A stretch of DNA of 64,000 nucleotides. Origin: Candidatus Babeliales bacterium (GTDB taxonomy: Bacteria > Babelota > Babeliae > Babelales > JBFXEV01). The stretch is taken from positions 873,994 through 937,993 of the forward strand of contig JBFXEV010000001.1 in the NCBI GenBank assembly GCA_050179755.1, read 5' to 3'. The position numbers and the translations under genes are program-made. A model generated the notes under the pieces. That model was not told where the DNA came from and made no database searches. It saw only the letters and a list, made by a program, of their open reading frames with translations. The first letter of the stretch is position 1; the number at the start of each line of letters is the position of its first letter. This document shows positions 35,960 through 52,310 of the stretch, in pieces.

Positions 35960-36044
35960 GGCGAGATTCCCGAGCGGTCAAAGGGGACGGACTGTAAATC
36001 CGTTGGTTATGCCTTCGAAGGTTCGAATCCTTCTCTCGCCACCA
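35960..36044 (+). tRNA. tRNA-Tyr(GTA)
   Basis: Cloverleaf with long variable arm; loop CTGTAAA. Confidence 0.96.
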
Positions 36045-36313
36045 GTCTTTGCTCCTTACGTCGCAAATTCTGGCACTTCTAGGGAATTTACTTATTAATA
36101 AAAAGTAGGTTTCTATGGAAAGAGCAAAGACTGCCCAAATTCGCCGTCTGGTATGAGTTTGCCGAAAGGCAAAGGCGAAGAGGCAAAGACGGGCCAACCG
36201 ATTGAAAATATGGCAGCTTCCCATAACGAAGACTGGCAAGCCACGATAAAAATTATTTGTTCACTGAAATTTCAAGTTTAGAGCGGTAACTGGCCACATA
36301 ATGCAATTTATGT

Positions 36314-36390
36314 GCGGGAATAGCTCAATTGGCTAGAGCGACAGCCTTCCAAGCTGTAGGTTGCGGGTTCGAGTCCCGTTTCCCGCTCCA
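36314..36390 (+). tRNA. tRNA-Gly(TCC)
   Basis: Loop CTTCCAA; CCA end. Confidence 0.96.
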
Positions 36391-36484
36391 TTGAAAGCCG
36401 CACCCTTTCCACAACCGCTCGTCCCGGGCGCAAAGCAGGGTGAGTGTGATTGACAGGGATATTATCCCTCTTTGAAAAAGTTAA

Positions 36485-36560
36485 GCTGGCGTAGCTCAGT
36501 TGGTAGAGCAGCTGATTTGTAATCAGCAGGTCGTGGGTTCGAATCCGACCGCCAGCTCCA
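36485..36560 (+). tRNA. tRNA-Thr(TGT)
   Basis: Loop TTTGTAA; CCA end. Confidence 0.95.
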
Positions 36561-36562
36561 CT

Positions 36563-36623
36563 CGCCATCGCTCCTCTGGAGCTAAGGCGTAGTGCCACGC
36601 AATAGCGCTTTGCGCGACGGCGG
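36563..36623. repeat. tRNA-adjacent palindromic repeat pair
   Basis: 36596-36623 is the reverse complement of 48767-48794 at 26/28 nt. Confidence 0.7.
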
Positions 36624-36751
36624 GCAGTCTCTACAGCTGCTGTGGCGCGATTTTTACGCCCTGGAGTTGGCATAGTGCAAAAAAACGCTGATTTATTTGT
36701 GTTTTTGGTTTTTTTTATTTATTCTAAATGAAGTACTCTAGAAGAGTTAAG

Positions 36752-36827
36752 GCCCACGTAGCTCAGCAGGTAGAGCACTTCCTTGGTAAGGGAGAGGTCG
36801 CCGGTTCAAACCCGGTCGCGGGCTCCA
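36752..36827 (+). tRNA. tRNA-Thr(GGT)
   Basis: Loop TTGGTAA; CCA end. Confidence 0.95.
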
Positions 36828-36896
36828 TAAGGTTACAAAAATTTATCTATACACTCCGTCTTTGTTTAAAGCAAATTCGGACAAGAGTTCACAAGC

Positions 36897-37058
36897 ATGG
36901 CAAAGAAAAAACGGGTGTCAACACACCTTTCCTGTAACGACTGTAAAGAGCGTAATTACACCCAAGCTGTTTCGGGCAAAAGAACTGTTGGTTCTTTGCG
37001 CTTGAGCAAGTATTGTTCGCGTTGCAGAAAGCATAGTGAGCATAAAGAAACTAAGTAA
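36897..37058 (+). CDS. rpmG: 50S ribosomal protein L33 (Zn-ribbon type)
   Basis: Translated by hand: [21 protein letters not shown]...[16 protein letters not shown]; below the ORF-track cutoff. Confidence 0.93.
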
Positions 37059-37063
37059 AAAAA

Positions 37064-37138
37064 AGGCCAGTGGCGCAATGGCAGCGCAGCAGACTCCAAA
37101 TCTGAAGGTTGGGGGTTCAAGTCCCTCCTGGCCTGCCA
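37064..37138 (+). tRNA. tRNA-Trp(CCA)
   Basis: Loop CTCCAAA; G73; CCA end; conserved position before secE. Confidence 0.95.
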
Positions 37139-37402: not shown

Positions 37403-37924
37403 ATGAAACGATGGTATGTAGTTCAAATTTATGCAGGCTATGAAACGGCTTTAGTAGCAGATCTTGAGCGCCGCATTAAACAAGCGGGGCTTGAAGAGCT
37501 TTTTGGCCAAATTTTAGTTCCATCGGTTCAAGCCCAAAAAGCGTTTGGTGCTGCCTCTACTCAAGGTGAGCAGCAACTATTTCCCGGGTATTTACTTATC
37601 GAAATGGTACCTGAACAAGAAGCAATACGGTTGGTACAAGCTTCTCCCCGTGTTGTTCGCTTTCTTGGTGGAAAAAATCCAACACCGATATCTCAGCAAG
37701 AAGTAGATAGAGTACTATCGCAGCTTAAAGGCGAAGTGATAGTTGCACCTAAAGCAAGTAATTTTGTGGAAGGCAGCGAAATCGAAATTAACGAAGGTCC
37801 TTTTGCAGGCTTTGTTGGGATAATAGAAAGCGTGGATGATGAACATGAGCGCATTACGGTTATGGTGAGTATTTTTGGCCGTATGACTCCGGTTGATCTT
37901 GGATTTAATCAAGTAAAACAGTAA
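37403..37924 (+). CDS. nusG: Transcription factor NusG
   Basis: WYVVQ, FPGY, GPFAGF, IFGR.TPV. Confidence 0.96.
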   Translation: MKRWYVVQIYAGYETALVADLERRIKQAGLEELFGQILVPSVQAQKAFGAASTQGEQQLFPGYLLIEMVPEQEAIRLVQASPRVVRFLGGKNPTPISQQEVDRVLSQLKGEVIVAPKASNFVEGSEIEINEGPFAGFVGIIESVDDEHERITVMVSIFGRMTPVDLGFNQVKQ

Positions 37925-37950
37925 CAAACTTTTAGCTAACTGGATTTGGA

Positions 37951-38373
37951 ATGGCCAAAGCAATAAAAACAATAGTGAAATTACAAATTCCTGCTGGCGC
38001 TGCAACACCTGCTCCTCCAGTAGGTACTGCTCTTGGGCCCCATGGTATTAACATGATGGGATTTTGTAAAGATTTCAACGCAAGAAGTGCTAGTCGTAAA
38101 GGTGAAACAGTTCCTGTTGAGGTGACGATTTATGTGGATCGTTCATTCGATTTTATTCTTAAAACGGCTCCAACTTCAGAAATGATTCGCAAAAGATTAA
38201 ATCTTTCTAAGGGTTCATCTAAACCTAATACTGAAAAAGTGGGTAAACTTTCTTGGGCTGATATAGAAGAGATTGCAAAGGTAAAATTACCTGACTTGAA
38301 CGCTCTTGATATGGAACAAGCTAAAAAGATTGTTGCCGGTACTGCGCGCAGTATGGGTGTTGACGTCATTTAA
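37951..38373 (+). CDS. rplK: 50S ribosomal protein L11
   Basis: ATPAPPVG, GTARSMG. Confidence 0.97.
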   Translation: MAKAIKTIVKLQIPAGAATPAPPVGTALGPHGINMMGFCKDFNARSASRKGETVPVEVTIYVDRSFDFILKTAPTSEMIRKRLNLSKGSSKPNTEKVGKLSWADIEEIAKVKLPDLNALDMEQAKKIVAGTARSMGVDVI

Positions 38374-38389
38374 TGATAAGGTATACGGT

Positions 38390-39088
38390 ATGAAACACCG
38401 CGGAAAAAAATATAAAGCATCGCGTGCGCAAGTTGCGTCCCGCGTTATTGTGCCATTAAAACAGGCGGTTGATCAACTTAAAAAGGTTGCATTTGCTAAG
38501 TTTGATGAATCAGTAGACGTGGTATTGCGCCTTGGCATTGACCCAGCAAAGGGTGAACAAGCGGTGCGTGGATCAGTTATTCTGCCAGCTGGTACTGGTA
38601 AAAAAGTAAAAGTCTTGGTGTTTGCCAAAGGTGAGCATGCACATGCTGCTCAGCAAGTTGGTGCTGACTATGTTGGCTCAGAAGATTTAATTGAAAAGAT
38701 TGAAGGTGGGTGGATTGACTTCACTTACGCCGTTGCTACTCCCGATATGATGGGTAAAGTTGGTAAATTAGCAAAGATTCTCGGGCCTCGAGGTCTTTTG
38801 CCTAACCAAAAGCTTGGTACGGTGACTTTTGATGTTGCACCAATTGTGCAAGACCTTAAGAGTGGCCGAATCTTTTTTAAGAATGATAAGCAAGGCGACG
38901 TGCATGTAACGCTTGGTAAAGTTTCCTTTGATGCACCGAAACTGCAAGAAAACATTGTAGCCTTCTTAAAAGCGCTTGCGGCTTCTCGCCCTGCAAAGGC
39001 AAAAGGTAAGTTTTTAAAGAGCATGACTATTACTTCTACTATGGGCCCGGGTATTACCGTCAGTCCAGATGAAGTAGTGGCTGTGTGA
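38390..39088 (+). CDS. rplA: 50S ribosomal protein L1
   Basis: KFDESVD, LGPRGLLPN, STMGPG; start re-called at MKHRGKK. Confidence 0.96.
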   Translation: MKHRGKKYKASRAQVASRVIVPLKQAVDQLKKVAFAKFDESVDVVLRLGIDPAKGEQAVRGSVILPAGTGKKVKVLVFAKGEHAHAAQQVGADYVGSEDLIEKIEGGWIDFTYAVATPDMMGKVGKLAKILGPRGLLPNQKLGTVTFDVAPIVQDLKSGRIFFKNDKQGDVHVTLGKVSFDAPKLQENIVAFLKALAASRPAKAKGKFLKSMTITSTMGPGITVSPDEVVAV

Positions 39089-39109
39089 CGTGAATAAGGG
39101 TTAACGATT

Positions 39110-39631
39110 ATGAATCGCCAAGAAAAAGAACAAGTTATTTCGACACTTAAGCACGACTTTAATGATAGCCAAGCTGCATTCTTAGTTTCCTATCAAGGTC
39201 TAGATGTAGTTCAAATGAGTAACTTGCGCCATGCTCTCCGCGAAAAAGGTGGAACATGCAAGGTTGCTAAAGTAACTCTTATGCGGCGCGGTATTGAGCA
39301 AGTGCCAGAAGTTGCACAGCTTGAACCGTTTGTAAAAGACCAAGTTGCACTTGTGTTTGCGCATAATGAACCTGCATCTATTGCAAAAGTTCTTTTAAAC
39401 TTTGCAAAAGATAATGAAAAGCTGCAACTTGTTGCAGGCTGTTATGAATCACAATTACTTGATGCAAAAGCTATAAAAGCACTTGCAACATTACCATCAA
39501 AAGAGGTATTGCTTGGTCAAGTGTGTGGTTTATTGCAAGCTCCTGCTACGGGCATTGCATGTTCAATGAACGCAGTTATGAGACAGTTGCTTGTGGCTAT
39601 TACTAAAGTGGCTGAAAAACAAGCAAATTAG
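39110..39631 (+). CDS. rplJ: 50S ribosomal protein L10
   Basis: LATLPSKE; synteny. Confidence 0.93.
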   Translation: MNRQEKEQVISTLKHDFNDSQAAFLVSYQGLDVVQMSNLRHALREKGGTCKVAKVTLMRRGIEQVPEVAQLEPFVKDQVALVFAHNEPASIAKVLLNFAKDNEKLQLVAGCYESQLLDAKAIKALATLPSKEVLLGQVCGLLQAPATGIACSMNAVMRQLLVAITKVAEKQAN

Positions 39632-40278: not shown

Positions 40279-43200
40279 ATGTCTAGCCTTTCAGGCAAAT
40301 GTGTTATTCGTAGATCATTTGGAAAGCGAAAGGATGTTGTTCCTGTTCCCGATTTGATTGGGATTCAGTCGCGTTCATTCAATGAGTTTGTTCAATTGGA
40401 CATGCTGCCAGAGGAGCGTGTTGCTCTAGGTTTGCAAAAGGTATTTCGTGATATCTTTCCTGTGGATTTTGAGGATAAGCTTTCTCTTGAGTTTGTCAGC
40501 TACGAATTGGGGCATTGGTCATGTACGTGTGGTAAACTAGCTGGTATTAATAATCGCTATACGTGGAACTGTTCTTCTTGTAAGAAGTCAGGAACATCGC
40601 GACTTGATGCTCAGTGTACTTGCACGTATTGCAACAAAAAAACTGCTTCCTACATCACATGCTCTAACTGTTTATCACGAGTGAGTCTGCAATTGCCATT
40701 AACTCTTGAAGAGTGTAGGTCAAGCGGACAAACTTTTGCTATGCCGTTAAAAGTTAAGATACAGTTGATTAACTGGGATATTGATGACAAAGGCAACAAA
40801 GTTGTTCGCGACATTAAAGAACAGGTTATTTATTTTGCAGATATGCCTGTAATGGCTGATCTGTATGAAGAAGACAACGTATTTAAGCTTGGTAGCACGG
40901 GGACTTTTCTTATAAATGGTGTTGATCGTGTGGTGGTTAGTCAATTACACCGTTCTCCTGGTGTAGTGTTTGGCCAAAGCAAAAAGATCAAAGACGTTCG
41001 CGGTCGCCCGTATTACCTTGCCCGTATTATTCCTATGCGTGGTTCATGGCTTGATTTTGAATTTGATAGTAACGATTTACTTTATGTACGCATCGATAAA
41101 AAGAAAAAGATGCTTGTTACTACGTTCTTGCAGGCTCTTGGCATTGCACGGGATAAAATTATTTCTCAATTTTATAAGATTCAGACTATCACCGTTGAAA
41201 AAGGCGGCTTTTTTGTACCAGCAGATAAGACCGCTGTAGGTCTTCGTATTGAAAAAGATATGCTGCCTCAAGGATCTGTAGATTCGCTCATCGGTAGCCG
41301 AATTACTGATAGTGTGTTGTCTAAATTGCAAAAAGAGAAAATAACACGATTAGAGCTTAACAAGGCAAACTTGGTAGGGCGTGTTCTTGCTGCAGATGTA
41401 ATTGATCCGCAAACGGGTGAATTGCTTGCAAGTCAAGGGCAAGTCTTTGCGCAAGAGCAATTTGACCAATTTTCTAAAGCTTCTGGCTTGTCATTTGATC
41501 TTATTGCATCGTCTGGCTATGTTATTCAGCCTTCTATTGCGTTAACATTAACGCATGATAAATGCCATTCACTTGATGATGCTATTAAAGAATTACATGC
41601 TAAAATCTGGCCTGGTGATAACGCTTCCTTGCAAGAGGTTCGTGAACGCCTTGAAAATATGCTTTTCAATAGTCGCCTATATGATATGACGCGTGTAGGC
41701 CGTATTCGCATGAACCGTAAGTTGAATTTATCGGTTAATGATGATATTTCGGTGCTTACGCTCGAGGATATTATTGCTTCTATTCGCTATTTAGTTAATT
41801 TACGTGAGCTTGGTGAGGGCGAGTTGGATGATATTGATCATCTTGGTAATCGCCGTGTACGTTTGGTTGGTGAATTGTTAACTAATCAGGTGTATATCGG
41901 TTTGTCGCGAGTTGAGCGTATTATCCGTGAACGCTTCCGTATGCAAGAGCCACAAACAGCATTAATGCCGCAAGACTTCCTTAATGTTAAGCCGTTAAGT
42001 GCTGCATTACGTGAATTCTTTGGTTCAGGCCAATTATCGCAGTTTATTGATCAAACAAACCCATTATCTGAAGTTGCACATAAACGTAGACTTTCAGCTC
42101 TCGGGCCCGGCGGTGTTATGAAAGATAGAGCAACGTTTGAAATACGTGACGTTCATAGTTCTCACTATGGCCGTATTTGCCCTATTGAAACCCCTGAAGG
42201 TCAGACTGTTGGACTTATTTCATCACTTTCTACCTATGCAATGGTAAATGACCTTGGGTTTATTGAAACTGCGTATCGACCGGTAATAAACGGTAAAGTA
42301 AAAGATGAAGTTGTCTTTATGGACGCTTTTGCAGAAAGTGATCAATATATTACGCAAACAGATGCGGTTAATACAAAAACTGATGAAATTCAGGGTGACC
42401 GTGTGGTAGCGCGTCATGAAGGGAACTTCATGTATGTTGATGCTGCAAAAGTTAACTATGTAGACCTTTCAAGCCAACAGCTTGTTTCTGTTTCTACTGC
42501 GCTTATTCCGTTCTTGGAACATGATGACGCGTCTCGTGCGCTTATGGGTTCTAACATGCAACGCCAAGCAGTGCCGCTTATTAAATGTGAAGCGCCACTT
42601 GTTGGTACTGGTATGGAACGTGAAATTTGTAAATCTTCTGGTGCTGCCATTGAGGCAAAGCGGCCGGGGATAGTGCAATACGTATCTTCTGAAAAAATTG
42701 TTGTTCAGGCAGATCGTGATGCGTTTGAAACAGTTGAAGACTGGATTGCGCATGGTATTGATATTTATTATTTGAAAAAATTTAAACGTTCAAGCTATAG
42801 CACGTGGATCCATCAGTCTCCTATCGTTGCACGTGGTGATCATGTGAACGCGGGTGATCTTTTAACCGATGGACCTGCAATTGATTCGGGTGATCTTGCT
42901 TTAGGGTCTAACTTGGTAGTAGCCTTTATGCCATGGCATGGTTACAACTATGAAGATGCTATTGTGCTCTCCAAGCGTTTGGTTACCGATGACGTGTTAA
43001 CATCAGTTCATATTGATGAATACGTGGTAGACGCGCGAGACACTAAACTTGGGCCTGAAGAAATTACTAAAGATATTCCTAACGTGAGTGAAAAAGCATT
43101 ATCGCATCTTGATGATGATGGTATTGTAAAAATAGGTACGCGAGTGCAACCAGGTGATATCTTGGTTGGTAAGGTAACTCTTAAAGGTGATATTCAGTTT

Positions 43201-44601
43201 TCTCCTGAGGAAAAATTGCTCCGTGCCATCTTTGGTGAAAAGTCTCGTGAAGTACGTGATACTTCCTTGTACGTACCACCTGGGATTGAAGGCACCGTTC
43301 TTGATGTAAAAGTATTCTCTCGTAGCGGTATTCGTAAGGATAAGCGTTACAAAGAAATGGTACGCATTGAGGTTCTCAAATTAGAAGCTGAATATGCAGC
43401 GCATCAAGGTTTCTTGGAACGCATGCTTGGCGAACAAATTAGTGGTTTGCTTGCAGGTCAAGTGCCTGCAGGGCGTCCAGCAGCTAAAGTACTCAACGAC
43501 AAAGTATATGACAAAGCAGCCCTTGAATCACTTGATTTTGAACAATTATCTGCGCTGAAAGCAAAAGATAAAAAAGTTCAGGATCAAATAGATCTTATGG
43601 TTAATACCTTGCAAAACCAGGTCCGTATTATGGAAGGGTTAAAAGAAGAGCGTATTAACAGACTTAAGAAGGGTGATCCGCTTCCATCTGGTGTTATTAA
43701 GATGGTGAAAGTATATATTTCAAGCAAACGTCATATATCAGTTGGTGATAAAGTTGCGGGTCGTCACGGTAATAAAGGTGTGGTATCAATAATTGTGCCA
43801 CGCGAAGATATGCCGTATATGGATGATGGAACTCCTGCTGATATCGTATTGAACCCGCTAGGTGTTCACTCTCGTATGAACGTTGGTCAGATTATTGAAA
43901 CTGCCCTCGGGTGGGCTGGCCGCACTATGGGTGAACGATTTGAAGCAGCGCTTAAAGATCAAAGCAACAAACTTGTCAAAAAGTATCTTGAAGATTACTT
44001 TGGCGCTGATTTGATTGCTGATTACCAAAAAGCACATGGTGTAGATGGTTTGATTGAACTTGCACAGCACACTGCAAAAACAGGTGTTCACTTTGAATCG
44101 CCTGTGTTTGATGGTGCATCATTTGATGGTGACGTGCAGCCACTACTTAAGAGCCTTGAGTTACCAACTTCCGATTCATTTATGATTCGTGATGGTAGAA
44201 CGGGAGAATATTTTGATCAGCCTGTAACGGTAGGATCATTGTATATTCTTAAGTTAAACCATATGGTTGATGATAAGCTCCATGCCCGATCAGTTGGACC
44301 GTACTCCTTGGTAACGCAGCAGCCACTTGGTGGTAAAGCGCAAATGGGTGGCCAGCGATTTGGTGAAATGGAAATGTGGGCGCTTGAAGCATATGGTGCT
44401 GCATACACCCTACAAGAAATGTTGACATATAAATCAGATGACGTAAATGGTCGCCATAAGGTCTATGAAGCTATTGTTCGTGGAGATGAAGTACCTGAAC
44501 CAGGGTTACCAGAATCGTTCAACGTGTTAGTAAAAGAGCTTCAAAGTTTAGGCTTACAAATAGACTTGTTCAAAGGCGGCAAGGAGGAAGTCGGTGAATA
44601 A
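40279..44601 (+). CDS. rpoB: RNA polymerase beta subunit
   Basis: CPIETPEG, GDKVAGRHGNKG, GGQRFGEME. Confidence 0.99.
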   Translation: MSSLSGKCVIRRSFGKRKDVVPVPDLIGIQSRSFNEFVQLDMLPEERVALGLQKVFRDIFPVDFEDKLSLEFVSYELGHWSCTCGKLAGINNRYTWNCSSCKKSGTSRLDAQCTCTYCNKKTASYITCSNCLSRVSLQLPLTLEECRSSGQTFAMPLKVKIQLINWDIDDKGNKVVRDIKEQVIYFADMPVMADLYEEDNVFKLGSTGTFLINGVDRVVVSQLHRSPGVVFGQSKKIKDVRGRPYYLARIIPMRGSWLDFEFDSNDLLYVRIDKKKKMLVTTFLQALGIARDKIISQFYKIQTITVEKGGFFVPADKTAVGLRIEKDMLPQGSVDSLIGSRITDSVLSKLQKEKITRLELNKANLVGRVLAADVIDPQTGELLASQGQVFAQEQFDQFSKASGLSFDLIASSGYVIQPSIALTLTHDKCHSLDDAIKELHAKIWPGDNASLQEVRERLENMLFNSRLYDMTRVGRIRMNRKLNLSVNDDISVLTLEDIIASIRYLVNLRELGEGELDDIDHLGNRRVRLVGELLTNQVYIGLSRVERIIRERFRMQEPQTALMPQDFLNVKPLSAALREFFGSGQLSQFIDQTNPLSEVAHKRRLSALGPGGVMKDRATFEIRDVHSSHYGRICPIETPEGQTVGLISSLSTYAMVNDLGFIETAYRPVINGKVKDEVVFMDAFAESDQYITQTDAVNTKTDEIQGDRVVARHEGNFMYVDAAKVNYVDLSSQQLVSVSTALIPFLEHDDASRALMGSNMQRQAVPLIKCEAPLVGTGMEREICKSSGAAIEAKRPGIVQYVSSEKIVVQADRDAFETVEDWIAHGIDIYYLKKFKRSSYSTWIHQSPIVARGDHVNAGDLLTDGPAIDSGDLALGSNLVVAFMPWHGYNYEDAIVLSKRLVTDDVLTSVHIDEYVVDARDTKLGPEEITKDIPNVSEKALSHLDDDGIVKIGTRVQPGDILVGKVTLKGDIQFSPEEKLLRAIFGEKSREVRDTSLYVPPGIEGTVLDVKVFSRSGIRKDKRYKEMVRIEVLKLEAEYAAHQGFLERMLGEQISGLLAGQVPAGRPAAKVLNDKVYDKAALESLDFEQLSALKAKDKKVQDQIDLMVNTLQNQVRIMEGLKEERINRLKKGDPLPSGVIKMVKVYISSKRHISVGDKVAGRHGNKGVVSIIVPREDMPYMDDGTPADIVLNPLGVHSRMNVGQIIETALGWAGRTMGERFEAALKDQSNKLVKKYLEDYFGADLIADYQKAHGVDGLIELAQHTAKTGVHFESPVFDGASFDGDVQPLLKSLELPTSDSFMIRDGRTGEYFDQPVTVGSLYILKLNHMVDDKLHARSVGPYSLVTQQPLGGKAQMGGQRFGEMEMWALEAYGAAYTLQEMLTYKSDDVNGRHKVYEAIVRGDEVPEPGLPESFNVLVKELQSLGLQIDLFKGGKEEVGE

Positions 44602-47600
44602 TATGCTACAGCGTTTTAAGGAATACCTTAATATAACGCAATTTAATGCAATGAAATTGAGCATTGCTTCACCTGAAAAAATACGATCTCTTTCGTATGG
44701 TGAAGTAAAGAAGATAGAAACAATTAACTATCGTACACTCAAGCCTGAGCGCGATGGATTATTCTGTGCGCGCATTTTTGGTCCAGTTAAGGATTGGGAA
44801 TGTAACTGCGGTAAATACAAGCGCATGAAGCATCGTGGTGTAACGTGTGAAAAATGTGGTGTGGAAGTAATACAGGCCCGCGTTCGTAGAGAACGCATGG
44901 GCCACGTAGATCTTGTAGCACCCGTTTGCCACATCTGGTTCTTAAAAGGTATCCCAAGCTATTTAAGCTTGATTTTGGATATGGCTGTTAAAGATCTAGA
45001 ACGCGTGATCTATTTTGATGCTTACTTGGTCATTGATCAAGGTAAATCGCCGTATCCTCGCAAAACGCTTTTGGCTGCTGCTGAGTATGAAAAATATACT
45101 GAAATGCACCCAGAAGATCATGCCTTTAAAGCAGAAAGTGGTGCAGAGGCAGTACGTTTAGTGCTTTCTTTGATGGATTTATCTTTAGAGATTGCGCAAC
45201 TTGATAAAGAGTATGAGAAAGCAACTTCAGTTGCTGCGCGCCATAAATTGATGCGTCGCATTAAGGTATTATCAAGCATGCACCAAGCAGGCATTCGCCC
45301 TGAGTGGATGATTATGACGGTGTTGCCGGTATTGCCTCCTGATTTGCGACCGTTAGTACCGTTAGAAGGTGGACGCTTTGCAAGCTCAGATTTAAATGAA
45401 TTATATAGACGTGTATTAAACCGTAATATACGTTTGCATCGGTTGCTCGCGATCGAGGCTCCTTCGGTAATTATCAAAAATGAAAAGCGTATGCTCCAAG
45501 AATCGGTAGATGCGCTTATTGATAATGGTCGCCGAGGCCAGCCAGTACGCGGCACCAACCGTCGTCCGCTTAAATCACTTTCTGAAATGCTCAGAGGTAA
45601 GCAGGGCCGGTTCCGACAAAACTTACTCGGTAAACGTGTTGACTATTCAGGACGTTCAGTAATTGTGGTTGACCCAGAACTTCATATGAATCAATGTGGT
45701 TTACCAAAAATTATGGCGCTTGAACTATTTAAGTCGTATGTGTATTCAGAGCTTCTTGAACGTGAGCTTGCAGTTAACTTACGCGTTGCAAAACGCATGG
45801 TAGAAGACGCAGAGCCAGAAGTTTGGGACGTGCTAGAAGATGTGGTAAAAGACCGCCCGGTACTATTAAACCGTGCACCAACGCTCCATAGATTAGGTGT
45901 GCAGGCGTTTTACCCAATTTTAGTTGACGGTAAAGCTATCAAAATTCACCCGCTCGTTACTCCAGCGTTTAACGCGGACTTTGATGGTGACCAGATGGCA
46001 GTCCACGTTCCATTAAGTTCTAAGGCTCAGCTTGAGTCACAAAAACTTATATTATCAACCCAGAACCTTCTTTCTGCATCAAATGGTCGTCCTATTGCAG
46101 TTCCTCACCAAGATATGGTGTTAGGGTTGCACTATATGACCAAAGTTCGCTGCAATGTAAAAGGTGAAGGGATTACGTTTGGTTCACTCCAAGAAGTAAT
46201 TACTGCGTATCAATTTGGGCAGGTGCATTTGCACGCTCGTATTAAGTTACGCCTTGCAGATAATCAAGTGGTAGAAACTACCGTAGGCCGTGCAATTCTT
46301 TTTGAAGCGTTACCAGCAGGATCCGATTTCCATTGGATCAATAAAGTAACCAAAAAGAGTGATTTGAATAAGCTTATTGAAAAGATTTATTATCGTTTTG
46401 GTTCTGAGCCAACGGTAATCTGTCTTGATAAAATCAAGAAGCTTGGGTTCTATTATGCAACGGTGAGTGGTGTATCGTTCTCTATGCACGATTTGATAGT
46501 TCCTGCCAAGAAAGATACCATTATTTCTAAAGCGGAGCATGAAGTACAGCGTATTGAAAACTTATACATGGACGGTGTGATCACTAATGGTGAGCGCCAT
46601 AGTAAAGTAATTAGCATTTGGTACGGCGCAACAGCAAGCGTAGCTAATGAAATGTTAACTGACTTTGAAGCGCAGAATAATGAATCATTTTTGAATAAAG
46701 ATAAGTCTGATATTCCGTTTAACTTTATCTTTATGGTTCTTGATTCTGGTGCAAAAGGTTCATCTGCACAGATTAAACAGCTTGTTGGTATGCGTGGTTT
46801 AATGTCCACACCTACCGGTGAAATTATGGAAACGCCGGTTAAATCTAACTTTAAAGACGGGTTAAGCGTTTTTGAGTACTTTATTTCAACTCACGGTGCT
46901 CGTAAAGGTCAAGCCGATACTGCACTTAAAACGGCAAACTCTGGTTATTTAACACGTAGACTTGTAGACGTTGCGCAAGACGTAACAGTAACGCTCGATG
47001 ACTGTAAGACTTTGGGTTATATTGAGCTTGAAGCGTTGCAAGAATCTGGTGATATTATTTATGCACTTGCAAATCGTGCTTTTGGCCGTGTGATTGCAGC
47101 AGACGTTAAAGATCCTGTTACTGGTGAATTGTTGTTCCGTCAAGGTGATATTATTTATCGCCAGGATATGCAAAAGCTGGCAGATTCAGCGGTTTCTAAA
47201 TTGCTCGTGCGTTCAGTGCTCACCTGTCAGGCAAAACGTGGCGTGTGTGCTGTGTGTTATGGACTTGATTTGTCGCGCCTTGATCTTGCAGACGTTGGTA
47301 CCACGGTGGGTATTATTGCTGCACAATCAATTGGTGAACCGGGTACACAGCTTACCATGAGAACCTTCCACATCGGGGGTACTGCATCTGGTACTGCTGA
47401 TCAAAATCAATTTAGTGCTAAGCATGCAGGTAAATTGCAATGGCGTGGTATCCGTACTATTGAAAACCGTGATGGTCAGCATGTGGTACTAAGCCGTAAA
47501 GCGCGTATCGTAATCGTTTCTGAAGACGGGCGTGAGTTGCAACAGCATACGCTTGAATATGGTGCATTACTCTTAGTGGCTGACGGCCAAGAAGTAACTG

Positions 47601-48700
47601 CTGGTCAAAAGCTTGCAGAATGGGATCCACATAACAAGGTTATTTTGACTGAGCGTGCAGGTAAAGTACAATACGTTGATTTAATTAAGAATATTACTAT
47701 ACAAGAGCGCTTTGACGAAGCGACTAAGAAATCAAGCAATATTGTGCTTGAGCATAGAAACGAAAAGTATCAGCCTGCTATCAGCATTGTTGATAAAAAC
47801 GGTGATGAACTTGCTCATTACTTCTTGCCTACCGGTTCATACATGGTAGTAAAGGATGGTGAAGAAGTTAAAGTGGGTGATATTTTAGTTAAAATGCCTC
47901 GTGAAATAACAAAAACCAAAGATATTACCGGTGGTTTACCTCGTATTGCTGAGCTCTTTGAAGCACGTGCACCAAAAGATCCTGCAGTACTTGCAGATAT
48001 TGATGGTGAGGTTGTCTTTGGTGGCTTATACCGAGGTATGCGCAAAATATCAGTGGTGAATGGCCAAGAAGCACATGATTACTTTATCCCACGTGGTAAA
48101 CAATTAAACGTGGTGAGTGGCGATCAGGTGACTGCAGGTGACTTGTTAACATCTGGTACACCAGTGTTGCATGATATCTTGCGTATTATGGGGCCTGAGG
48201 TATTGCAAAGATATCTTGTTGGTCAGATCCAAGAGATTTACCGCTTACAAGGTGTTGATATTAACGATAGACACATTGAATTAATTGTACGGCAAATGTT
48301 ACGTAAAGTGCGTGTCGTTGATTCAGGAGATACAGATTTCTTGATTGGCGATCGTGTGGATCGTATTCACTTTAAGACAGTTAATGAAGTGTTGCGTGCA
48401 GAAGGTAAAAAACCGGCGGTGGCACGTCCAACGCTTATGGGGCTTACCCTTGCATCGCTTGATAGTGAAAGCTTTATTTCAGCAGCATCGTTCCAAGAAA
48501 CTACAAAAATTCTTGCAGAAGCGGCTATTGCTGGCAGAGTTGATCACTTGTATGGCTTAAAAGAAAACATTATTATTGGTAAACTAATACCAGCAGGTAC
48601 CGGTATAGCCTCATTCAGAAAGAAATTTTTGGGTGATGACCGCTCAGAATTTGAGCGAGAAGCGGCACTTGAAGAAGAGACTATTGTAACAGGCGCGTAG
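44594..48700 (+). CDS. rpoC: RNA polymerase beta' subunit
   Basis: NADFDGDQM catalytic motif; GTG start overlapping rpoB. Confidence 0.99.
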   Translation: MNNMLQRFKEYLNITQFNAMKLSIASPEKIRSLSYGEVKKIETINYRTLKPERDGLFCARIFGPVKDWECNCGKYKRMKHRGVTCEKCGVEVIQARVRRERMGHVDLVAPVCHIWFLKGIPSYLSLILDMAVKDLERVIYFDAYLVIDQGKSPYPRKTLLAAAEYEKYTEMHPEDHAFKAESGAEAVRLVLSLMDLSLEIAQLDKEYEKATSVAARHKLMRRIKVLSSMHQAGIRPEWMIMTVLPVLPPDLRPLVPLEGGRFASSDLNELYRRVLNRNIRLHRLLAIEAPSVIIKNEKRMLQESVDALIDNGRRGQPVRGTNRRPLKSLSEMLRGKQGRFRQNLLGKRVDYSGRSVIVVDPELHMNQCGLPKIMALELFKSYVYSELLERELAVNLRVAKRMVEDAEPEVWDVLEDVVKDRPVLLNRAPTLHRLGVQAFYPILVDGKAIKIHPLVTPAFNADFDGDQMAVHVPLSSKAQLESQKLILSTQNLLSASNGRPIAVPHQDMVLGLHYMTKVRCNVKGEGITFGSLQEVITAYQFGQVHLHARIKLRLADNQVVETTVGRAILFEALPAGSDFHWINKVTKKSDLNKLIEKIYYRFGSEPTVICLDKIKKLGFYYATVSGVSFSMHDLIVPAKKDTIISKAEHEVQRIENLYMDGVITNGERHSKVISIWYGATASVANEMLTDFEAQNNESFLNKDKSDIPFNFIFMVLDSGAKGSSAQIKQLVGMRGLMSTPTGEIMETPVKSNFKDGLSVFEYFISTHGARKGQADTALKTANSGYLTRRLVDVAQDVTVTLDDCKTLGYIELEALQESGDIIYALANRAFGRVIAADVKDPVTGELLFRQGDIIYRQDMQKLADSAVSKLLVRSVLTCQAKRGVCAVCYGLDLSRLDLADVGTTVGIIAAQSIGEPGTQLTMRTFHIGGTASGTADQNQFSAKHAGKLQWRGIRTIENRDGQHVVLSRKARIVIVSEDGRELQQHTLEYGALLLVADGQEVTAGQKLAEWDPHNKVILTERAGKVQYVDLIKNITIQERFDEATKKSSNIVLEHRNEKYQPAISIVDKNGDELAHYFLPTGSYMVVKDGEEVKVGDILVKMPREITKTKDITGGLPRIAELFEARAPKDPAVLADIDGEVVFGGLYRGMRKISVVNGQEAHDYFIPRGKQLNVVSGDQVTAGDLLTSGTPVLHDILRIMGPEVLQRYLVGQIQEIYRLQGVDINDRHIELIVRQMLRKVRVVDSGDTDFLIGDRVDRIHFKTVNEVLRAEGKKPAVARPTLMGLTLASLDSESFISAASFQETTKILAEAAIAGRVDHLYGLKENIIIGKLIPAGTGIASFRKKFLGDDRSEFEREAALEEETIVTGA

Positions 48701-48765
48701 CTCAGTGGTAGAGCATTGCTTTGACGTAGCAAGGGTCAGCGGTTCAATCCCGCTCGTGCCTACCA
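48691..48765 (+). tRNA. tRNA-Val(GAC), overlapping the last 10 nt of rpoC
   Basis: AGGCGCG..TTGCT-TTGACGT-AGCAA..CGTGCCT-ACCA, full cloverleaf. Confidence 0.95.
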
Positions 48766-48766
48766 T

Positions 48767-48872
48767 CCGCCGTCGCGCGAAGCGCTATGGCGTGATAGGC
48801 GGGCCCGAAGGCAGCTGAAGAGTGAGCGAAAGTTGCCGAAGTCACGCAGTAGCCATGAAATGGCGAAGGCGG
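48767..48872. repeat. tRNA-adjacent palindromic repeats
   Basis: CCGCCGTCGCGCGAAGCGCTATGGCGTG and a related inverted copy GTAGCCATGAAATGGCGAAGGCGG. Confidence 0.65.
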
Positions 48873-49127
48873 AAGTTATTTCCAATTTACGATAGTAAAA
48901 GTGGAATGTAAGTCACACCGCCGCATTTAAAAAAGTGCGAAGACGGATTGAAATTGAGAAATCCATTGAATGTAGTTTGGCAGTCGAAAGATTGCCAAAC
49001 TCATAACGTGGGCCAGATATTTACCGGTTTTTCAAAAGACTAGGATATACTGGTTGTGATCAGATAAGATCGGTAAGACGCACCTGTGGGTGCGCAATAA
49101 TCAATAATTATTATAAGAAAGGTAATC

Positions 49128-49391
49128 ATGACCGAAAAAACAAAACGCGAAGTTATAGAACAATTTAGCGGTAATCCAAAAGATACTGGTTCAACATCAG
49201 TGCAAATTGCTCTGATCACGCAACGCATTCAACAATTAACTGAACATATGCAAAATAATAAAAAAGATGTTTCAAGTAAACGTGGTTTACTTAAACTAGT
49301 AGATAGCAGAAAACGATTACTTTCATATCTTGATCGTACTGATCATGCTCGTTATCTTGAAGTAATAAAAAAGCTTAATATAAGAAAATAA
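49128..49391 (+). CDS. rpsO: 30S ribosomal protein S15
   Basis: DTGSTSVQIA, KRGLLKLV. Confidence 0.97.
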   Translation: MTEKTKREVIEQFSGNPKDTGSTSVQIALITQRIQQLTEHMQNNKKDVSSKRGLLKLVDSRKRLLSYLDRTDHARYLEVIKKLNIRK

Positions 49392-49403
49392 TCTAGGATC
49401 TCA

Positions 49404-51497
49404 ATGGCAAAAACGTTTACATTACCCGAATTTGGGTATTCCGTTGTACTAGATAAATACGCACGTCAGGCTGATGGTTCAGTTTGGATACAACAAGGCG
49501 GCACGGTAGTTCTTGCAACTGCAGTATCAGCTGAATCTTCAGAGTTTCCTGGCTTTTTGCCGCTTACTGTTGAATACCGCGAAAAATTTTCTGCAGCAGG
49601 TAAAATTCCTGGTGGTTACTTTAAACGAGAAGGCAAGCCTTCTGATAAAGAAGTATTAACTGCTCGCTTAATAGATAGAGCAATTAGACCACTATTCCCT
49701 GACAACTACTTTAATCAAGTGCAAGTTATTGTAACGGTGTATTCAGTAGACCGTGATAATATGCCAGAAACGCTTGCAGTTGTTGCAGCTTCCATGGCAC
49801 TTAATAATTCCAAGATTCCTTTAATCAGCCCTGTTGGTGTAACTACGGTGGCACGCATTAAGAATGAATGGGTTTATAATCCTTCGTATCCTCAAACGGT
49901 TGAATCTGATACTCGTTTTATGGTTATTGGTACGCAAGACGGCCTTTGCATGGTAGAAGGTGGATTACCAGAGCTTGATGAAGCTACTGTTGTTGACGTG
50001 CTCTTTAAAGCGCATGCAAAAATGCAACCACAAATTGCATGGCAACATGAAATAAGAAAGCAAGTAGGTAAAGAGAAAGAAAGTGTTGCTCTTACTGAAG
50101 AATGGAATTGCTGGAAAGCGCATGTTGATGCGTATTTAACTGATGCAGTAGTAAAAACTACATTCTTGAATGAAAAATTAGCTCGCCGTGATGCTATCAA
50201 AGCTGTAGAAAATACATTCTTTGAAAAACATGCACATGCTTTTGAAGCTGACTCTAATTTAAAGACATTGGTGAATTATATTTTTGATATTCAACTTGAC
50301 GAGCGTATGGCTGCGTTAACCTTAAAAGAAGGCAAACGTATTGACGGTCGTGCGTATGATGAAGTTCGCCCAATAACGGTTGAAGTTGGTATTTTACCAT
50401 TTAACCATGGATCTGCGGTATTTACTCGTGGTGAAACACAAGCGCTTGTTTCTACAACGCTCGGTAGCGCGCAAGATATGCAACGTGTTGATGAGTTAAT
50501 GGATTCAAATGCTCAAAATGCATTTATGCTTCATTATAACTTCCCGCCGTTTGCAACAGGTGAAGCAAAAGGTATGCGTGGTGTTTCTCGACGTGAAACT
50601 GGTCATGGTCATTTGGCAGCTACTGCAATTCGTTCAGTGCTTCCTACTATGGAACAATTTCCGTATACGCTCCGTATAGTATCAGACGTTCTTGAATCTA
50701 ATGGTTCTTCTTCAATGGCTACGGTGTGTGGTACTACCATGTCCTTAATGGATGCTGGTGTGCCTATTAAACATATGGTCAGCGGTATTGCAATGGGATT
50801 ACTTGAACATAACGGTACGTTCCAAGCTTTATCAGATATTAATGGTAAAGAAGATTCATTTGGTTTGATGGACTTTAAAGTTGCAGGAACAGCCGCTGGT
50901 ATTACTGCACTTCAAATGGATATTAAATACAAAGGCGGATTACCGCGTATAGTATTTGAAAAAGCATTAGAACAAGCAAAACGCGGTAGATTGCACATTC
51001 TTGATAAAATGAAACAAGTAATGACTGCGCCTCGCAGTGAGCTTTCTGCGTTAGTTCCTAAAGTGATATCATTCAAGATTTCAACTGATAAAATTGGTGC
51101 AGTTATTGGTAGTGGCGGTAAAGTGATTCGCGAAATCATAGATAAAACGGGCACGTCAATTGATATTGATGATGATGGTACGGTTAAAATCTATGGTGGG
51201 CCAGAAGCAAAAATTGAACAGGCAATCTCATGGGCTAAAGCTCTTGGTGGCCTGATCACTCCGGGTGAACGCTTTGTCTCTGCTATTAAACGTGTAACTA
51301 ACTTTGGCGTGTTTGCAGAACTTGCACCAGGCCTTGACGGTTTGATTCATATTTCAAATATCCCACGTGAAATGCAAAAATCTATGGAACTAGAGTTCCC
51401 AATAGATACTATCATTGACGTTGAAGTATTGCAATATGATCCATCTAATGGACGTATTGGTTTGAAGTATCTTGGCAAACATAAAGCTGATAAGTAA
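49404..51497 (+). CDS. pnp: Polyribonucleotide nucleotidyltransferase
   Basis: RLIDRAIRPLFP, ESNGSSSMA, MDFKVAG, KH and S1 domains. Confidence 0.98.
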   Translation: MAKTFTLPEFGYSVVLDKYARQADGSVWIQQGGTVVLATAVSAESSEFPGFLPLTVEYREKFSAAGKIPGGYFKREGKPSDKEVLTARLIDRAIRPLFPDNYFNQVQVIVTVYSVDRDNMPETLAVVAASMALNNSKIPLISPVGVTTVARIKNEWVYNPSYPQTVESDTRFMVIGTQDGLCMVEGGLPELDEATVVDVLFKAHAKMQPQIAWQHEIRKQVGKEKESVALTEEWNCWKAHVDAYLTDAVVKTTFLNEKLARRDAIKAVENTFFEKHAHAFEADSNLKTLVNYIFDIQLDERMAALTLKEGKRIDGRAYDEVRPITVEVGILPFNHGSAVFTRGETQALVSTTLGSAQDMQRVDELMDSNAQNAFMLHYNFPPFATGEAKGMRGVSRRETGHGHLAATAIRSVLPTMEQFPYTLRIVSDVLESNGSSSMATVCGTTMSLMDAGVPIKHMVSGIAMGLLEHNGTFQALSDINGKEDSFGLMDFKVAGTAAGITALQMDIKYKGGLPRIVFEKALEQAKRGRLHILDKMKQVMTAPRSELSALVPKVISFKISTDKIGAVIGSGGKVIREIIDKTGTSIDIDDDGTVKIYGGPEAKIEQAISWAKALGGLITPGERFVSAIKRVTNFGVFAELAPGLDGLIHISNIPREMQKSMELEFPIDTIIDVEVLQYDPSNGRIGLKYLGKHKADK

Positions 51498-51503
51498 ACA
51501 CGT

Positions 51504-52310
51504 ATGAAAACTGTTGGCTTAAAAAGAAAAGATGGACGCAGCGCAAACGAGCTGCGTCCTATTTCCTGTCAGTTTGATATCTATCCAAATGCTGCAGGCT
51601 CAGTATTATATGCCATAGGCAAAACTCAGATTTTATGTTCGGTGATTATGCAACCAGGCGTTCCTGCATTTTTGCGTGGTACTAGAACTGGTTGGCTCAC
51701 CGCAAATTATTCTATGCTGCCTGCTTCAACGCAAAAACGTAACGAGCGTGAATCTGGCGCTAAACCTAATGGCCGCTATATGGAGATTTCTCGCTTGATA
51801 GGCAGATCGCTTCGCGCAGTAGTTGATGTTGCAAGTATTGGTGAACGTACAATTACTATTGATTGTGACGTGCTGCAAGCAGATGGTGGCACACGCACGG
51901 CCAGTGTTACTGCTGCATGCTTGGCGCTTAAGATGGCGGAGCAGACATGGCTGAGAAAAGGCATTATTACGCAAGCTATTTCGCGTGACGTAATTGCTGG
52001 TGTTTCAGTTGGCTTTTGCAATGGCGTTCCCGTGCTTGATCCTAATTGTGATGAAGATAGCTCTGGTCAAGCAGATGTTAACTTTGTGTTAACCAAATCT
52101 GGCGCTATTATTGAGATCCAAGGCACTGCAGAAACGAGCCCGATTTCTTATGAATCATTTAATGCAATGTATACGCTCGCGTGTGCAGGTGTTTCTGATA
52201 TAATGGAAAGTATAGAAAAGCCGAGTGAGCCGGTGATTAAGCAGCAGACACAAAAGGTAGCGTATAAGTTCGGTACATTAGGAAGTATTTTACAGCAGAA
52301 GACAGAGTGA
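51504..52310 (+). CDS. rph: Ribonuclease PH
   Basis: EISRLIGRSLR, DVLQADGGTRTAS, EIQGTAE. Confidence 0.95.
   Translation: MKTVGLKRKDGRSANELRPISCQFDIYPNAAGSVLYAIGKTQILCSVIMQPGVPAFLRGTRTGWLTANYSMLPASTQKRNERESGAKPNGRYMEISRLIGRSLRAVVDVASIGERTITIDCDVLQADGGTRTASVTAACLALKMAEQTWLRKGIITQAISRDVIAGVSVGFCNGVPVLDPNCDEDSSGQADVNFVLTKSGAIIEIQGTAETSPISYESFNAMYTLACAGVSDIMESIEKPSEPVIKQQTQKVAYKFGTLGSILQQKTE

Follow-up and report, generated by a model that had tools for sequence, protein, structure and literature searches.

The stop codon of rpoC, the gene of the RNA polymerase beta-prime subunit, was found inside the tRNA-Val(GAC) gene that follows it in a 64,000-nucleotide (nt) stretch of contig JBFXEV010000001.1 from a Candidatus Babeliales bacterium (the whole stretch is hereafter called the window). 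The overlap is real and stable, and it is not the product of a chance open reading frame (ORF). Based on the comparison with related genomes, it was concluded that the overlap is probably a tolerated by-product of spacer loss in an old and very compact block, rpoB-rpoC-tRNA-Val(GAC)-rpsO-pnp, which is common to the whole group.

Junction of rpoC and tRNA-Val(GAC)

The following elements form the junction in the window:
44594..48700, + strand: rpoC, RNA polymerase beta-prime, 1368 amino acids (ORF listing; Pfam Rpb1 domains 1-5)
48691..48765, + strand: tRNA-Val(GAC), 75 nt, CCA encoded (ARAGORN; Rfam RF00005)
48691..48700, + strand: 10-nt overlap made up of the third base of a Thr codon, GGC GCG and TAG (sequence read)
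48698..48700, + strand: rpoC stop codon TAG, equal to tRNA positions 8-10 (sequence, ORF listing)

The 3' end of rpoC reads ...ATT GTA ACA GGC GCG TAG, with the TAG at 48698-48700 of the + strand. The tRNA begins with the last letter of the Thr codon ACA, continues through the Gly-Ala codons GGC GCG as its bases 2-7 and has the stop codon as its bases 8-10; the translated C-terminus of beta-prime is ...EEETIVTGA*. All five Rpb1 domains of beta-prime were present in the frame 44594..48700 according to Pfam. The tRNA gene was recognized as valid by two independent methods, ARAGORN and the Rfam tRNA model RF00005, the latter matching 48691-48762 with 65.2 bits against a gathering score of 29. The sequence, the ORF listing and both tRNA methods thus agreed with the original prediction, which had placed the rpoC stop inside tRNA-Val(GAC) and the last two codons in the acceptor stem. 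The RNA fold of 48660-48770 had a z value of 0.24, and the cloverleaf was not recovered in it.

The genome to which the window belongs (G000) consists of one contig of 1.525 Mb with 39% G+C and is 96% complete. The tRNA-Val(GAC) gene is single-copy among its 34 tRNA genes, and no other among them shares bases with a same-strand frame of 100 amino acids or more. A search of other overlap genomes revealed no second tRNA-Val(GAC) copy at E <= 1e-12. The GTT and GTC codons together make up 39% of Val codons, and the tRNAs located at the same place in relatives showed a median identity of 95% to that of the window. This tRNA is needed and intact.

A ribonuclease (RNase) P cut at position +1 of the tRNA would leave an rpoC piece ending in ...GUAAC, without a stop codon. 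The earlier claim that such a cut of a joint rpoC-tRNA transcript yields a non-stop rpoC mRNA is correct as a matter of logic. The components needed for the cut and for the subsequent rescue of ribosomes are encoded in G000: the RNase P RNA (199 bits) and its protein RnpA, as well as transfer-messenger RNA (tmRNA) and SmpB. An RNase E/G homologue, polynucleotide phosphorylase (PNPase) and RNase PH are encoded too, together with one gene of the PolyA_pol family, the activity of which is a prediction. An exonuclease of the RNB family (RNase R/II) was not detectable in this 96% complete genome. Therefore, PNPase, encoded beside the tRNA, may be the main enzyme of 3'-to-5' mRNA decay, and the usual RNase R partner of tmRNA is possibly missing in G000.

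Conserved gene block and variable spacer

The rpoC 3' end together with the tRNA was searched for in related genomes. Matches were obtained in 40 of 41 relatives and, at the scope of the phylum, in 120 of 121 genomes. All matched relatives were labelled as the same order, and the one genome that gave no match (G014) is split into 120 contigs. The nearest named record among the relatives was a metagenome-assembled genome of Dependentiae (Vermiphilaceae; L021). A total of 130 loci was analyzed, in which the rpoC stop was located by tblastn with frame extension and the tRNA by ARAGORN; being akin, the genomes that carry them are not independent samples.

In every one of the 130 loci tRNA-Val(GAC) lay just downstream of rpoC on the same strand, when in a control of 79 loci from other phyla no tRNA was found within 1500 nt downstream of rpoC. 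For the next gene, rpsO, an S15-sized frame could be placed in 112 loci; its median distance from the tRNA was ~51 nt, and in 27 of these loci the distance did not exceed 35 nt. The identity of rpsO was checked with Pfam in G000 only. The pnp gene was located downstream on the same strand in all 28 loci tested, out of 47 with long flanks, and in G000. The conserved block across the group is rpoB-rpoC-tRNA-Val-rpsO-pnp.

The length of the spacer, counted from the rpoC stop to tRNA +1, varied within this constant layout. It was +4 to +180 nt in 110 of the 130 loci, with a median of 14.5 and a peak at 8-9, and most of these 110 loci had 4-30 nt. In the remaining 20 loci the rpoC frame enters the tRNA, by 10 nt in 11 loci, 2 nt in six loci and 1, 21 and 39 nt in one locus each. 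In two loci ARAGORN set the tRNA start one base early, which shifts positive gaps by one and leaves the count unaffected. In the loci L020, L105, L108, L118 and L191, with long spacers of 53-180 nt, a strong hairpin was observed in the spacer (a perfect stem of 13 bp in L191), which may be an attenuator or a terminator that most of the group lacks.

The distribution of spacer lengths was not smooth. Spacers of 0, 1, 2 or 3 nt were absent from all 130 loci, and the counts climbed from one locus at +4 to eight at both +8 and +9. Despite the empty classes 0-3, seven loci were found at -1 or -2. This pattern suggests a lower limit on spacer length that only complete loss of the stop circumvents. 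A wider empty interval of 0-7 nt, seen with 41 loci, was dropped, since with 130 loci only the classes 0-3 stayed empty.

Trees were built from the C-terminal part of RpoC to follow the overlap through the group. At least five changes of the overlap state were counted on a quick IQ-TREE tree of 41 loci, where well-supported branches alone force two. At least 11 changes were counted on a FastTree tree of 130 loci, where well-supported branches force four, and counting by the kind of overlap gave 13 changes on the latter tree. Three genomes of a single genus (g36) had overlaps of -10, -10 and -2. In the clade of two families (f5 and f14) the overlap occurred in six of seven genomes, with one apparent return to a +5 spacer (L159, f5). 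As judged from these sequences, the overlap state can last through long divergence.

A recent loss of the original stop codon had been considered among the possible origins of the overlap. The loss itself fits the comparative data best. It was not recent, because it is shared with a genome of the same genus (G001), recurs in 20 of 130 loci and persists through the two-family clade.

The conserved bases of the tRNA supply a stop codon in all three frames. A TAG was present at positions 8-10 in 128 of the 130 related tRNA genes as delimited by ARAGORN. A second TAG occurs at positions 19-21 where the D loop reads GGTAG, and a third, in frame with the second, follows the anticodon at 37-39. The tRNA starts with AG in 122 of 130 loci and is preceded by a T at -1 in 68 of 130; loci with both features have the stop T(-1)A1G2 across the tRNA start. 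Thus, an rpoC frame reading into the tRNA meets a stop after no more than 39 nt of it.

The RpoC tail beyond the conserved ...IPAGTG..SFR..YLG differs in both length and sequence among relatives. Owing to the stops in the tRNA, spacer loss adds only a few residues, Gly-Ala in the window, to a tail that is already variable, and it is unlikely that the 2 to 13 extra residues of beta-prime matter.

The other genes of the block and its surroundings in the window were as follows:
40279..44601, + strand: rpoB, RNA polymerase beta, 1440 amino acids, upstream of rpoC (ORF; six Rpb2 Pfam domains)
48766..48872, + strand: GC-rich structured repeat element right after the tRNA CCA (fold -45.5 kcal/mol, z -2.2)
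49128..49391, + strand: rpsO, ribosomal protein S15 (Pfam Ribosomal_S15, E 6.8e-33)
49404..51497, + strand: pnp, polynucleotide phosphorylase (Pfam RNase_PH, KH and S1 domains)
51504-52310, + strand: RNase PH gene, after pnp in the same direction (Pfam)

The order ahead of the junction is rplL, rpoB and then rpoC. Further upstream, a cluster of tRNA-Tyr, Gly, Thr, Thr and Trp was observed at 35960-37138 (+ strand), ahead of an ORF run at 37403-39631 and of rplL-rpoB-rpoC. Many bacteria have tuf between tRNA-Thr and tRNA-Trp; no ORF of tuf size was listed between the second tRNA-Thr and tRNA-Trp of this cluster.

In the window the GC-rich element is inserted between the tRNA and rpsO and widens their distance to 362 nt from the usual ~50 nt. 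The initial ~30-55 nt of the element are repeated in G000 directly after tRNA-Lys(CTT) and tRNA-Val(TAC), and inverted copies lie 36-64 nt after tRNA-Phe, tRNA-Thr(TGT) and tRNA-Arg(ACG). These five copies are located on G000:C1 at:
1365457-1365512
1034010-1034040
836853-836880
1122250-1122277
910589-910616

Copies with 92-97% identity were present in genomes of other families (G008 and G037), and the element was not at this locus in the same-genus genome G001. No Rfam family matched it at the gathering score. It may be a 3' end hairpin or a mobile repeat.

Origin of the overlap and fate of the transcript

We proposed that a deletion or a point change would remove the own stop of rpoC, after which the frame would end inside the tRNA. 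Because the space between rpoC and the tRNA leaves no room for a promoter or a terminator, the two would probably be transcribed together, and RNase P would cut at tRNA +1 as it does in the secG-leuU transcript of E. coli. If the secG-leuU case holds here, the cut would end the useful life of the rpoC message in all lineages, overlapping or not. The overlap would then add only that ribosomes still on the cut message need release by tmRNA-SmpB, and the cost of this rescue appears small enough for long persistence.

The transcription signals of the region were in part consistent with this proposal. In a consensus promoter scan of 47800-49500, no + strand site was reported between 48176 and the tRNA, and the same scan of the window gave no terminator either between rpoC and the tRNA or after the tRNA. 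Promoter-like sites were at chance level in the region (four found against 4.4 expected). Base composition anchored on the tRNA start in 41 loci did not exceed 0.3 bit at any upstream position. The GC-rich structure after the tRNA of the window lacks a T run. In a crude scan of relatives with a loose T-run rule, terminator-like sites were not enriched after the tRNA (8 of 129 loci, compared with 15 of 130 control windows taken inside rpoC). One hairpin was found among 20 spacers of 30 nt or longer. Two sites were of interest as weak promoter candidates:
48564-48592, + strand: codons of LKENVIIGKL resembling a weak sigma-70 promoter (TTGAAA, 17 nt, TAAAYT; 8/12 in G000)
48992..49021, + strand: weak promoter-like site ahead of rpsO (TTGCCA, 18 nt, GATATT; 9/12)

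Data on RNA were sparse, and 4-5% of the sampled words were present in six RNA runs. Coverage in two of them (X18 and X20) was mostly on the tRNA; the parts left uncovered in X4, X18 and X20 carry no information. One contig of a wastewater metatranscriptome (X18, record 4; 410 nt, low depth) joined the rpoC 3' end of a relative to the tRNA. It matched the window at 48467-48529 and 48690-48765 with 199 nt between the two matches instead of the 160 of the window, and it contained a tRNA-Val identical to that of the window plus 72 nt beyond. This is a weak hint that rpoC and the tRNA share one RNA in a relative, a contig being no proof of a single transcript and DNA carry-over being possible.

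Several points weigh against the account by spacer loss. That account does not explain why gap classes 0-3 are empty, which hints at some selection on the spacer. An internal promoter at the LKENVIIGKL codons, 100-200 nt upstream of the tRNA, is possible, and by our own reasoning the demand for the tRNA may exceed the supply by read-through from rpoBC. Finally, we infer, rather than observe, co-transcription, the cleavage of the long transcript by RNase P and the tmRNA tagging of beta-prime.

The first alternative, which we regard as possible but not likely, is that the tRNA, perhaps with rpsO-pnp, owes most of its expression to a promoter within the 3' part of rpoC. A second part of the same proposal is held with equally tentative confidence: terminating ribosomes would keep the 5' half of the tRNA unfolded, so that full-length rpoC messages would be largely spared by RNase P and non-stop messages would be rare. 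A promoter-like match of 9/12 or better was located 120-179 nt upstream of the tRNA in 45 of 130 loci, mostly at the LKENVIIGKL codons, when matches closer than 60 nt occurred in 12 of 130. The codon choice leans towards both hexamers, TTG being used at 55% versus a background of 30% and GGT at 87% versus 53%. Further, a tRNA would normally need stronger transcription than rpoBC read-through provides. However, the site in G000 scored only 8/12 and the consensus scan reported none there. LKENVIIGKL is a conserved motif of RpoC whose AT-rich codons yield such hexamers, and the codon bias there was similar to, and not above, that at other conserved residues. Moreover, since nothing stops the polymerase coming from rpoB-rpoC before the tRNA, long transcripts must contain the tRNA even if an internal promoter is used.

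A stronger role for processing was considered unlikely. According to it, tRNA-Val(GAC) would punctuate one long rpoB-rpoC-tRNA-rpsO-pnp transcript throughout the group, and the RNase P cut would set the 3' end of the polymerase message and hand it to PNPase. In the ~15% of lineages with the overlap, that of the window included, each cut message would be non-stop and late beta-prime chains would be tagged by tmRNA. If this were true, the lifetime of the polymerase mRNA would be set by tRNA processing.

It had been suggested originally that the overlap couples beta-prime output to tRNA processing. In this case the overlap itself would be selected, and maturation of tRNA-Val would turn the rpoC mRNA into a non-stop message, tuning beta-prime by tRNA processing and tmRNA tagging. 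The geometry of the junction allows it, G000 has the genes for both RNase P components as well as for tmRNA and SmpB, and the overlap persists in six of seven genomes of the two-family clade. A like hypothesis was proposed for selB-selC in Mukai 2021 (PMC8124441). Nevertheless, in 110 of 130 relatives rpoC still ends at a normal stop 4-180 nt ahead of the tRNA, and the overlap takes five forms that were gained and lost repeatedly, with at least 11 changes of state and an apparent reversal in the f5 clade (L159, +5). No sequence feature was specific to the overlap lineages, and the tRNA was essentially the same in both groups. Besides, if the secG-leuU precedent (PMC2241853) holds, an mRNA cut 4-30 nt past its stop would also be lost fast, and the overlap would therefore add little regulatory range. 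Selection for such coupling is thus very unlikely, and the claim found no support in the comparison.

The last alternative, extremely improbable, is an artefact: an assembly error could mask a stop codon further upstream, or the tRNA gene could be a pseudogene. The window does come from an assembly of metagenome type, and of the DNA runs aligned the only one with the exact sequence belongs to the same study as the probable source, but the -10 form was found in nine further genomes and the tRNA, the only one for Val(GAC), has a score of 65 bits and a median identity of 95% to its orthologues. A DNA contig of 3934 nt from that run (X3) spanned 48200-48736 with 0 differences and no insertions or deletions listed. 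Because X3 shares its study with the probable source samples, the contig is not independent support. Independent and better support for the overlap is given by the same-genus genome G001, which is 87% identical over the stretch and carries the same -10 overlap with a different tail, ...EEEETIITGA*. An insertion, deletion or substitution that hides an earlier stop, named in the original prediction as grounds for its refutation, was not encountered at the junction in either sequence.

Comparison with known systems

No paper on the rpoC-tRNA-Val pair, Dependentiae included, was found in the literature, most subscription journals being outside the search. The RNase P-dependent separation of a message from a tRNA has its precedent in secG-leuU of E. 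coli. According to Mohanty and Kushner 2008 (PMC2241853), secG and leuU are transcribed jointly and separated by RNase P in a single cut, placed 14 nt past the secG stop; the secG mRNA is then lost within 30 s in a manner dependent on PNPase and poly(A) polymerase I (PAP I). In both pairs a same-strand tRNA lies directly downstream of a protein gene and neither a promoter nor a terminator intervenes, and the 14-nt spacer of secG-leuU compares with the median of 14.5 nt in the relatives studied here. The two cases differ in that secG keeps its own stop codon. They also differ in that leuU is followed by a Rho-independent terminator, whereas none was detected after the tRNA of the window.

The layout had also been likened to the tRNA punctuation of mitochondria. 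In mitochondria, tRNAs lie between same-strand protein genes and their excision defines the mRNA ends. The likeness stands for the gene layout, with its very short spacers: the tRNA is closely flanked on both sides by same-strand protein genes, rpoC and rpsO. In addition, seven relatives with the -1 and -2 forms would be left with UA or U, which could be completed to UAA by the addition of A. For the completion of the stop codon in the window itself the likeness fails, since A's added after ...GUAAC form no in-frame stop. Polyadenylation-dependent stop completion is not known in bacteria. Unlike in mitochondria, a single tRNA is concerned here and not a genome-wide system.

A protein-gene stop inside the following same-strand tRNA gene, as found here, occurs in selB-selC. 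According to Mukai 2021 (PMC8124441), the selB stop lies inside tRNA-Sec (selC) in Dyella, Luteibacter and a Nitrospirae lineage, with the stop just upstream in close relatives, and the overlap is conserved in some clades and not essential. Many Alphaproteobacteria have all of tRNA-Sec nested within the frame, when the rpoC frame enters the tRNA by 39 nt at most. SelB binds tRNA-Sec, so a stoichiometric feedback is plausible for selB-selC. Such a functional partnership between protein and tRNA was not found in the present case, where the protein is RNA polymerase beta-prime. We know of no specific link between beta-prime and tRNA-Val.

The pair belongs most closely to the class surveyed by Hudson, Lau and Williams 2014 (PMC4131195), in which a functional protein gene with a Pfam family extends over the start of a valid tRNA gene on the same strand. 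In that survey, 250 same-orientation overlaps with the coding sequence (CDS) upstream are counted among 115,660 tRNA and tmRNA (t(m)RNA) genes, and such overlaps are proposed to yield non-stop mRNAs on tRNA maturation. The commonest one was FtsW/RodA with tRNA-Ile(CAT) in Helicobacter, and a smpB-ssrA overlap was described in Carsonella. The pair rpoC/tRNA-Val is the top family in no row of the table, which names only the top family of each class. The top families of the survey stem from few evolutionary events in close relatives, whereas here the link was present in 130 of 130 loci of an order-level group and the overlap arose many times.

Hence, overlaps of such a kind, and the non-stop conclusion drawn from them, have already been published by Hudson 2014 and Mukai 2021, and the rpoC-tRNA-Val pair is a further case. 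Annotation pipelines that forbid CDS/tRNA overlaps would consequently truncate or flag rpoC in these genomes. The overlap alone is a curiosity of an already surveyed kind, and more is gained from the comparison: throughout the sampled members of this deep lineage of bacteria, the same tRNA gene is fixed a few bases behind a long and essential gene. The same gene pair forms a natural series with spacers from +180 to -39 nt, in which sister species differ in whether a stop precedes the RNase P site. This series could serve to test whether the RNase P cleavage of mRNA-tRNA transcripts makes non-stop messages in bacteria, and at what cost. Set beside the systems known so far, the conserved rpoC-tRNA-Val-rpsO-pnp block and the spacer series are the parts most worth follow-up.

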